IMG/VR virus record: IMGVR_UViG_2744054976_000016
Source of the DNA: a virus
Taxonomy: Duplodnaviria; Heunggongvirae; Uroviricota; Caudoviricetes
Reading direction: 5' to 3' (one strand)
Length of the DNA stretch: 3,205 bases
Every line of letters begins with the position of its first letter. Position 1 is the stretch's first letter. Below are positions 1,609 to 3,205 of the stretch, piece after piece. The position numbers were made by a program, and so were the translations under genes. The notes beneath the pieces were generated by a model, which searched no databases, was not told the origin of the DNA, and was given only the letters and a program-made list of their open reading frames with translations.

Positions 1609-2622
1609 ATGGCAATCAAAAAACTCGATGATGGTCGATATGAAGTGGACATCCGCCCTACTGGACGTAATGGAAAACGCATCCGTAGGAAGTTTGATAA
1701 GAAAAGCGAAGCTGTCGCTTTCGAGAAATACACGTTGTACAACCACCACAATAAAGAATGGCTATCAAAACCAACAGACAAGCGACGTCTGTCGGAGCTG
1801 ACACAGATCTGGTGGGATTTAAAGGGTAAACACGAAGAGCATGGGAAATCTAATCTTGGAAAAATTGAAATCTTCACAAAAATAACGAATGACCCATGCG
1901 CATTTCAAATTACGAAATCGCTTATCAGCCAGTACTGCGCCACCCGAAGAAGTCAGGGTATTAAACCTTCGAGTATCAATCGTGATTTAACATGTATTAG
2001 CGGCATGTTTACAGCCCTGATTGAAGCGGAGTTATTCTTTGGTGAGCACCCTATCAGAGGGACAAAAAGGCTTAAGGAGGAAAAACCAGACACAGGCTAT
2101 CTCACGCAGGAAGAAATTGCCTTACTGCTTGCTGCTCTTGACGGCGACAACAAAAAGATTGCGATTCTTTGCCTGAGTACTGGAGCACGTTGGGGAGAAG
2201 CAGCTCGTTTGAAAGCAGAAAATATCATCCATAACCGCGTCACGTTTGTTAAAACGAAAACAAACAAACCACGCACCGTCCCGATCTCAGAGGCTGTTGC
2301 CAAAATGATCGCGGATAACAAACGAGGTTTTTTATTCCCTGATGCTGATTACCCTCGCTTCAGACGAACAATGAAAGCAATAAAACCGGATTTGCCAATG
2401 GGGCAAGCCACACATGCACTAAGGCACAGCTTTGCCACTCATTTCATGATTAATGGAGGAAGTATTATCACGCTACAACGGATACTAGGTCACACGCGGA
2501 TTGAGCAAACTATGGTTTACGCTCATTTTGCGCCAGAGTACCTTCAGGACGCCATTTCTCTTAATCCGCTAAGAGGTGGTACTGAGGCCGAGAGTGTCCA
2601 CACAGTGTCCACAGTAGAGTAA
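1609..2622 (+). CDS. int: Int, P2-family tyrosine integrase (site-specific recombinase)
   Basis: 337 aa. N-terminal arm-binding region MAIKKLDDGRYEVDIRPTGRNGKRIRRKF. Catalytic signature intact: R in STGARWGE, H-x-x-R in HALRHSF, H in LGHTR, nucleophilic Tyr in TMVYAH (codon 2518-2520). GGAGGG Shine-Dalgarno at 1596-1601, 7 nt before the ATG. Lies directly upstream of the att core. Confidence 0.95.
   Translation: MAIKKLDDGRYEVDIRPTGRNGKRIRRKFDKKSEAVAFEKYTLYNHHNKEWLSKPTDKRRLSELTQIWWDLKGKHEEHGKSNLGKIEIFTKITNDPCAFQITKSLISQYCATRRSQGIKPSSINRDLTCISGMFTALIEAELFFGEHPIRGTKRLKEEKPDTGYLTQEEIALLLAALDGDNKKIAILCLSTGARWGEAARLKAENIIHNRVTFVKTKTNKPRTVPISEAVAKMIADNKRGFLFPDADYPRFRRTMKAIKPDLPMGQATHALRHSFATHFMINGGSIITLQRILGHTRIEQTMVYAHFAPEYLQDAISLNPLRGGTEAESVHTVSTVE
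2593..2613. repeat. Tandem direct repeat AGTGTCCACA x2 (2593-2602 and 2604-2613) inside the last codons of int; candidate Int arm-type binding sites
   Basis: Perfect 10-bp units one nucleotide apart, about 90-110 bp from the core. Reverse complement TGTGGACACT resembles the P2 Int arm-site consensus as I recall it (TGTGGACA). They encode the repetitive C-terminus SVHTVSTVE. Confidence 0.5.
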
Positions 2623-2701
2623 CGTTTAAGGGCTTTCAGTGGTAATTTATGCCGCTCAAACCCGCATTGTACCGTTGAAAGCCCCTACTGGTGACACCCT
2701 A

Positions 2702-2728
2702 AATCTCCCTTACACGGGCTTATTTTTT
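2702..2728. other. P2 att core (27 bp), AATCTCCCTTACACGGGCTTATTTTTT on the plus strand; its top-strand sequence equals the 3' terminator end of the CyaR sRNA
   Basis: Exact reverse complement of the P2 core AAAAAATAAGCCCGTGTAAGGGAGATT as I remember it, about 80 bp after the int stop. Sequence to the left is phage (int, arm repeats); sequence to the right is AT-rich flank without phage genes. Confidence 0.8.
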
Positions 2729-2792
2729 TATGCATAAGCCCTATCTCTGGTAACCGTCTTCCATTGACCACATCGATAGAATCCTCCTTCAT

Positions 2793-2825
2793 AGCACGAT
2801 GCCTTTCACTTATCGGCATCGTGCT
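2793..2825. repeat. Perfect 11-bp inverted repeat AGCACGATGCC / GGCATCGTGCT with an 11-nt spacer (stem-loop); function unknown
   Basis: Seen directly: 2793-2803 is the exact reverse complement of 2815-2825. No U-tract follows on either strand. Lies in the host flank between the att core and the lipoprotein gene stop. Confidence 0.6.
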
Positions 2826-2887
2826 CCCACAGGTTCCGGCTACGCACAGCCAGAACGCGCATATTTGACGCTTACCAAAAAATATTC

Positions 2888-3205
2888 TCACTCTCCACAT
2901 TTGAATGTCAGACGAGCGACACCATGTAATCCTACACCTTCTGTCTTCAGCTCAACTATTTGCATTTTTTTGCCCTGAGTAACACAGAAATGAGTTGCAT
3001 CATTTTTTACTATATTTTCTGCACCAGATATTCTACCCCTGGCTAAAGAAGCTTCGGCTTCGGTGTAGTATTGGTTATCGAGTTTACGCTGAATATTACT
3101 TTTATATGCAAGACCAAATTTACCGATACTTGTCTCATCATTATGCACAGCACAACCAGACATAATAAAAATACTAATTAATGATATAGCAGCTATCTTT
3201 TTCAT
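2888..3205 (-). CDS. Small predicted lipoprotein (105 aa), likely the host gene flanking the att site; possibly yegR by synteny and length
   Basis: Minus-strand ORF starting at the window edge: MKKIAAISLISIFIMSGC has a basic N-terminus, hydrophobic core and a lipobox-like MSGC with Cys at +1. Visibly AT-rich compared with the phage side. In E. coli K-12 the gene next to the cyaR/P2 remnant locus on this side is yegR (105 aa as I recall), but I cannot confirm the sequence from memory. Confidence 0.65.
   Translation of the reverse strand: MKKIAAISLISIFIMSGCAVHNDETSIGKFGLAYKSNIQRKLDNQYYTEAEASLARGRISGAENIVKNDATHFCVTQGKKMQIVELKTEGVGLHGVARLTFKCGE

Follow-up and report, generated by a model that had tools for sequence, protein, structure and literature searches.

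An orphan cyaR 3′ end beside int at the junction between a P2-type prophage and the yegR flank

In a stretch of viral DNA of 3,205 nucleotides (the whole of which is referred to here as the window), the integrase gene of a P2-type phage is followed by a 27-bp sequence that reads as the 3′ end of the sRNA gene cyaR (ryeE). The body of the sRNA gene is missing, and DNA of the bacterial host begins where the sequence ends. How did the end of an sRNA gene come to stand beside int, and does it act there as an RNA gene, as a terminator for int, or not at all? The reading favored here, with a probability of roughly 95%, is that the sequence belongs to attL (B-O-P′) of a P2-type (Peduovirus) prophage integrated in the 3′ end of cyaR, and that the orphan copy is a passive duplication scar and the core site for excision, being neither an sRNA gene nor an intrinsic terminator for int.

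Phage side of the window and the att core

The left part of the window, positions 1-2728, aligns with P2 (NC_001895, 24356-27210) in two pieces at 99.1% identity, and with Peduovirus P24C9 and phage 10W at 99.9%, so that the prophage is slightly nearer to the latter two phages than to P2. Its 2,728 bases correspond to 2,855 bases of P2; a masked run of 12 N (712-723) represents ∼139 nucleotides of the overlap between B and orf78. On the minus strand, the window opens with the 5′ part of P2 orf80 (1-189; start codon at 187-189), a gene of the DUF2732 family that continues past the left end of the window. It is followed by the 3′ part of the P2 replication gene B (253-711), which is interrupted by the N run, and by cox (804-1079), which encodes the excisionase and Pc repressor (Pfam Phage_Cox, 161 bits over the full length) and is equivalent to P2 cox. 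The orf80 product with its DUF2732 assignment and gpB both lie under the P2 match. A 178-residue open reading frame at 253-789 was considered as a gene and rejected as an artifact, because its frame passes through the N run at 712-723. On the plus strand, the gene for the C immunity repressor (1194-1493; Pfam HTH_3) corresponds to P2 C (L001 135-434, where L001 is a slice of the P2 genome with an offset of +1059 to the window), and int (1609-2622) encodes a P2-type tyrosine integrase (Pfam Int_N, 87 bits; Phage_integrase, 78 bits) that corresponds to P2 int (L001 550-1563) and is transcribed toward the core.

The att core (O) occupies positions 2702-2728 on the plus strand (AATCTCCCTTACACGGGCTTATTTTTT) and is composed of the last two nucleotides of the 5′ stem arm of the cyaR terminator, the 6-nucleotide loop, the 3′ stem arm, and the T run that specifies the U tail. 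It is identical at 27 of 27 positions to the annotated core of P2 attP (NC_001895, 24356-24382) and matches the end of cyaR exactly. An earlier, sequence-only reading of this DNA had named failure of either match as a refutation of its own proposal, and both matches hold. The core is present as a single copy in the window, for which the chance expectation is 0 matches to the 27-mer even if three mismatches are allowed. The sequence-only reading had given the core as the CyaR 3′ end and the end of the sRNA body as ...CCUGUGUAA, and both agree with the Rfam alignment of the intact gene. The positions that it assigned to the core (2702-2728), to the hexamers AAGCCC (2679-2684) and GGGCTT (2716-2721), and to a run of seven T (2723-2729) are likewise correct.

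Two breakpoints delimit the core. In a megablast comparison, identity to P2 is 100% over 2560-2728 and stops exactly at 2728. The match to the cyaR 3′ end has its first base at 2702, and position 2701, in an alignment of five att sequences, is A in the junction and in attP and T in cyaR. The same alignment displays the expected P-O-P′, B-O-B′, and hybrid patterns, and both the identities and the breakpoints are read from it and from the database matches directly. To the right of 2728, the DNA is yegR-side host DNA with a 100% host match. In this flank, yegR (2888-3205, minus strand) is represented by an open reading frame of 105 residues with a lipoprotein-like N terminus (MKK...LISIFIMSGC); it is annotated as yegR in genomes that are 100% identical here, and in some records its product is named "lipoprotein YegR". 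A Pfam search with the 105-residue protein returned no family. With P2 identity ending at 2728 and yegR following, the DNA is an int-side prophage-host junction, as had been proposed. The accompanying claim that phage DNA rather than the CyaR body lies upstream of the core holds as well: P2 identity extends up to 2728, and a search of the window for CyaR (RF00112, gathering score 47) gave no Rfam match even at E ≤ 10. Only two chance-level matches, SraB and Flavo-1, were returned by that scan, a result that is consistent with an absent sRNA body.

An unintegrated attP, sampled from virion or circular DNA, would also place int and the core side by side, and two features of the window could be taken to favor it: everything to the left of 2728 is 99% P2, and the right flank contains a 35-nucleotide stretch that resembles the P arm. 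P2 identity nonetheless ends at 2728, and the right flank has neither the IHF site nor the true P arm. The sequence-only reading had held that ogr and P2 arm sequence immediately to the right would mark a free attP; ogr and the full P arm are not seen there, and yegR is present instead. This yegR flank is contiguous with cyaR in empty sites, and the P-arm-like stretch is found also in E. coli strains that are unoccupied. The probability that the window represents a free attP is therefore negligible.

Within the junction, the recombination sites of the P′ side are preserved. The P′ arm (2588-2614) lies within the 3′ end of int and contains two direct arm-type Int sites (GTGTCCACA at ∼2594 and ∼2605), as located by a motif scan and by the P2 annotation "Int, P′ arm" (L001 1529-1555). 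The consensus for such sites has been given as tgTGGaCa (PMC3448106). The Cox-binding region of attP (2612-2685; P2 annotation "protein_bind Cox", L001 1553-1626) is also kept, and both annotated footprints are 100% identical to those of P2. According to PMC3936717, attP has six cox boxes that point in two directions, and attL is where Cox acts. In the P2 record, int is separated from the core by the P′ arm and the Cox footprint; with Cox acting at attL, the junction is thus attL (B-O-P′).

The second junction, the empty site, and related insertions

The window holds one junction only; the second core and the intact cyaR gene were visualized in other genomes in which 2560-3205 is 100% identical. 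One of these is the lysogen E. coli ATCC 43886 (NZ_CP024256), whose int/yegR junction is 100% identical to window 2560-3205 and in which yegQ is followed by a P2-type prophage of 32 kb (ogrK to int) and then by yegR. In this genome, the core is found twice (L002 7708 and 39752). The left core ends a full-length CyaR gene (7646-7731) located beside ogrK (RF00112, model positions 1-85, 100.7 bits versus a gathering score of 47), and the right core lies between int and yegR without the sRNA body. The intact cyaR that had been predicted at the ogr-side junction, about 30 kb to the left of the orphan, is thus found in NZ_CP024256 at a distance of 32,044 bp.

The corresponding empty site was sought with a query built from cyaR, the core, and window 2729-2900. 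The empty attB, comprising cyaR, the core, and window 2729 onward, is present as one uninterrupted piece at 100% identity in many prophage-free genomes, of which NZ_CP019961 is an example, with yegQ and yegR as neighbors. The segment between the core and yegR (2729-2887) is accordingly the host B flank, being contiguous with cyaR and the core at 100% identity in unoccupied strains. Both the duplication and the empty site are direct observations. Among 5,426 complete E. coli genomes, the int|yegR junction is present in 812 (∼15%).

P2 Int is a tyrosine recombinase. In the proposed course of integration, it would exchange strands inside the 27-bp core, which is identical in attP and attB and which in attB is formed by the last 27 nucleotides of cyaR. 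The exact copy of the core carried by the phage would rebuild a complete cyaR at the ogr-side junction, and a second copy would be left beside int, with neither promoter nor body. The P′ arm Int sites and cox boxes upstream of this orphan would be used for excision. The recombination chemistry and the site usage in this scheme are presumed from established P2 biology and from the annotation of NC_001895. Because the phage carries an exact copy of the cyaR 3′ end, integration would restore cyaR, and the host would retain a working sRNA gene by virtue of the replacement copy that the temperate phage brings with it, a textbook case of integration into the 3′ end of an sRNA gene.

A P2 junction at cyaR is in itself ordinary and long known. 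The preferred P2 attachment site in E. coli is called locI, and Barreiro and Haggard-Ljungquist are said to have sequenced the attachment site in 1992. With P2 at its preferred site, the prophage of the window shares the integrase (99% at the DNA level) and the 27-bp core, and it lies in the same place, with yegQ/cyaR on one side and yegR on the other; its P′ arm and Cox region agree with the annotation of NC_001895; nothing of substance differs between the two. As a phage integration target, ryeE (that is, cyaR) is named in a passage of PMC3603311 that credits Wassarman 2001.

The fate of the target gene also follows an established scheme, in which phages carry a copy of the 3′ end of a gene, such that one junction restores the gene while the other keeps an orphaned piece of its 3′ end (PMC3448106, PMC3603311, PMC3333887). 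The same duplication is seen for SopE-φ and Fels-2 at ssrA, for 186-type phages at tRNA genes, and for phages at ryeB/sdsR in Salmonella. In contrast to the tRNA and tmRNA targets, the target here is the terminator of an Hfq-dependent sRNA and not a tRNA-like fold.

The ogrK-yegZ remnant of E. coli K-12 occupies the same site, with cyaR, the core, the P arm, and ogrK on its left and the yegR flank on its right. The remnant has kept no more than ogrK and 213 bp of D. In the window, by comparison, the core is complete, and int, the P′ arm, and the cox boxes are all present. The right-hand core of K-12 has been truncated by a deletion to TACACGGGCTTATTTTTT, with a loss of 9 nucleotides, such that K-12 too carries an orphan fragment of the cyaR terminator. 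The truncated core is observed between the D′ fragment and yegR (L003 1340-1370), fused directly to the 213 bp of D.

P2-like ogr-side junctions are also located directly after cyaR in several other enterobacterial species (L043, L074, L095, L112, and L123), which indicates that the role of the cyaR 3′ end as an att site extends far outside E. coli. These junctions display an IHF-like spacer, the arm sites GTCCACA/GACCACA, a terminator hairpin, and variant cores such as TTACGCAGGC.

The exact prophage boundaries defined by the two copies of the core can be used for annotation; two public records labeled as "phage" at this locus contain genes of the host. The record "Phage TP" (AY639599.1, L005) is a K-12-type chromosomal fragment comprising yegQ (labeled there as "putative protease"), cyaR, ogrK, and part of yegR. 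The record of vB_EcoM-720R8 (ON470606.1, L006) extends past attL into yegR, yegS, and a gene for a DeoR/GlpR-family repressor, the last of which is annotated there as a galactitol operon repressor.

The core and the end of the int transcript

The sequence-only reading had further proposed that the hybrid site could act as a composite terminator, made of phage and host parts, for int, with AAGCCC (2679-2684) pairing with GGGCTT (2716-2721) ahead of the T run. The two hexamers are indeed complementary and are followed by seven T, and the C-int transcript has to stop somewhere, although the window offers it no other terminator-like site past int. An intrinsic terminator, however, calls for a compact G+C-rich hairpin with a U tract right after it, and the orphan copy has none. 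The native cyaR terminator has an 11-bp stem (−15.9 kcal/mol); in the orphan copy, the phage sequence GGTGACACCCTA stands in place of the 5′ stem arm, and three of the 11 pairs are left, only CCC/GGG, with −3.5 kcal/mol. This loss of the stem is directly apparent from the two sequences. A consensus pattern scan of 2400-3205 for intrinsic terminators found 0 terminator-like sites on either strand, whereas the same scan detects the native cyaR terminator in the empty site.

Folding of the RNA leads away from the proposed pairing as well. The minimum free energy (MFE) fold of 2620-2735 has −28.3 kcal/mol, compared with −23.4 kcal/mol when AAGCCC:GGGCTT is forced, a cost of 4.9 kcal/mol; the equilibrium probability of these pairs is ∼1e-4, and the stem would have to close a loop of 31 nucleotides. 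AAGCCC is instead engaged in a 15-bp hairpin (2630-2684), both arms of which are transcribed ahead of GGGCTT. At the core itself, the best local fold is an 8-bp hairpin across the core/host boundary (2716-2742, plus strand), formed by the inverted repeat GGGCTTAT/ATAAGCCC (GGGCUUAU/AUAAGCCC; 2716-2723 with 2735-2742), which is also present in the empty attB. The U run is located in the loop of this hairpin, and no U tract follows it. On the MFE fold, the forced constraint, and the pair probabilities, the AAGCCC:GGGCTT stem is rejected.

The description of the site as a hybrid fails for a separate reason. The two hexamers and the T run, the seventh T excepted, are contained in the P′ side and the core and are identical in the free P2 attP, so the site is already there before integration and is not a product of it; any effect that these parts have belongs to the phage. 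Taken together, these results make a composite terminator very improbable, and the case provides a caution that a sequence with the look of half a terminator is not a terminator.

The hairpin that holds AAGCCC is the more conspicuous structure downstream of int. Present in both the MFE and the centroid folds of the plus strand, it is a 15-bp inverted repeat with arms at 2630-2644 and 2670-2684 and a small inner stem of 4 bp, and it begins 8 nucleotides past the int stop codon, within the annotated Cox footprint. It is kept in three Klebsiella P2-like (Reipivirus) phages that are 73-79% identical in this region. In the alignment of the four sequences, 96% of the cells are paired, and one double change and three wobble-preserving single changes are found; 133 of 500 shuffles do equally well, so that with four sequences the result is not significant. 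The changes in the Klebsiella phages keep G-U pairing only in the int-sense RNA. At the DNA level, the two-way orientation of the cox boxes is enough to explain the inverted repeat, and the hairpin could represent inverted cox boxes, an RNA element, or both. In Klebsiella phage ST16-OXA48phi5.4 (L008 1390-1440), the homologous hairpin is followed by ...CTAACGCACCCGACGGGGCTTTTTTT, a different terminator-like core after the same CTAA, which suggests that relatives of P2 Int may act on terminator 3′ ends elsewhere as well.

Where the int transcript would end may depend on the state of the phage. In the free attP of P2, int-sense RNA encounters no terminator-like site before the hairpin annotated as the ogr/F-operon terminator, which is read in reverse and lies 68 nucleotides past the core (L001 1737-1760; P2 24265-24288), with a 10-bp stem and the T-rich tail CTGTTTGTAA. 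In the prophage, this hairpin is 32 kb away from int, and the scan found no terminator-like site for at least 477 nucleotides downstream of the core at the junction. The accessible literature yielded no account of the 3′ end of the P2 Pc/int transcript.

In phage λ, the sib element destabilizes int mRNA through RNase III. The P2 arrangement resembles λ sib in that int is transcribed toward att and in that the RNA that follows int is not the same in the free phage as in the prophage. It differs from λ sib in that the distal element of λ destabilizes int mRNA, whereas the distal element of P2 would be a terminator, as predicted from its sequence. Integration might thus alter the RNA downstream of int in a λ-sib-like manner, with position-dependent control of int mRNA and possibly some damping of yegR in lysogens; the conserved hairpin at 2630-2684 could then serve as a 3′ stabilizer or a processing site. 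We regard this proposal, which derives entirely from consensus scans and folds, as unlikely. If it were true, C-int transcripts driven by Pc would run antisense into yegR unless they were stopped by Rho.

The host flank as a putative fossil of an older insertion

The P-arm-like stretch in the right flank (2742-2776), with an arm-type site GACCACA at 2766, aligns with the P arm of P2 (L001 1697-1732) with a score of 38, compared with 14.7 ± 2.3 for shuffled sequences (maximum 26; 0 of 2000 shuffles reach 38). It lies on the side of the core on which an ogr-side junction has its P arm. A second set of observations comes from the order of the neighboring genes. Among 64 enterobacterial cyaR loci, a conserved block (GTTCT[TG]AC...ATACACT) is usually found ∼20-60 nucleotides after cyaR and is followed by the start of yegS; in Escherichia sp. 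E1V33, the block stands directly after the T run of cyaR. In E. coli, this yegS promoter block is located ∼0.8 kb further on, just upstream of yegS, and it is only in E. coli, among the 64 loci, that yegR adjoins cyaR. One locus that appeared to come from a divergent Escherichia (L084) was rejected, being an E. coli assembly with frameshift errors. In phage genomes, no homologues of YegR were found except in the two mis-delimited records.

Immediately before the E. coli yegS block lies a sequence that resembles a decayed copy of the core (AATCCTCCATACTTGAACTGACTTTTT; L004, NZ_CP019961, 2404-2430). It is identical to the core at 18 of 27 positions, and no approximate match elsewhere in the locus is better; when the 405-nucleotide spacer was shuffled 5000 times, a match of this quality arose in 45 cases. 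The 40 nucleotides to its left, when compared with their P2 counterpart in an alignment anchored on the core, give a score of 21 versus 7.6 ± 3.2 (4 of 3000 shuffles). This part of the yegR-yegS spacer of NZ_CP019961 (L004 2364-2430) can be described as a putative relic P′-side spacer followed by a decayed core. Two further comparisons were not significant: extension of the decayed core to the cyaR body gave a score of 17 versus 12.9 ± 2.3 (196 of 3000 shuffles), and an unanchored comparison of the yegR-yegS spacer with the P′ side of P2 gave 18 versus 16 ± 2.1.

On these alignments, the host flank looks like a fossil left when an earlier P2-like element had inserted at this very core. In the simplest reading, an ancestral P2-like element would have integrated at the core and then have been almost wholly deleted, leaving its two arms, yegR, and an int-side copy of the core that has since been decaying. 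The modern P2 would have integrated anew at the surviving core, the one under selection. The flank would then provide a small and clean case of the repeated use of one att site, in which the scar of the earlier use is seen to decay.

The decayed scar also bears on whether the orphan core could have a function as RNA, such as that of an Hfq-binding 3′ module making the 3′ UTR of int regulatory, or of a decoy for partners of CyaR. Two parts of an Hfq-dependent sRNA, its U tail and the 3′ arm of its terminator stem, are indeed present in the orphan, and the terminator of CyaR matters for Hfq-related effects (PMC9765468). Lacking the 5′ arm, however, it forms no terminator hairpin, and the Rfam scan gives no signal. 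The int-side core of the K-12 remnant is short by 9 nucleotides, and the apparent older scar has dropped to 18 of 27 identities, as is expected of a neutral sequence. A function as RNA is accordingly considered extremely unlikely. That the older scar decayed suggests that the orphan copy of the window is not under selection and speaks, if indirectly, against any function of its own. With regard to the attL reading, the orphan core thus appears to be an inert by-product of integration, as judged by the predicted structures and by how far the older copy has decayed.

The host flank contains one further structure, an 11-bp perfect inverted repeat (AGCACGATGCC/GGCATCGTGCT; 2793-2825), which is seen in the minus-strand fold downstream of yegR and has no T run. 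It is located 63 nucleotides past the yegR stop codon, at roughly the position that the ogr terminator has relative to the P arm in P2.
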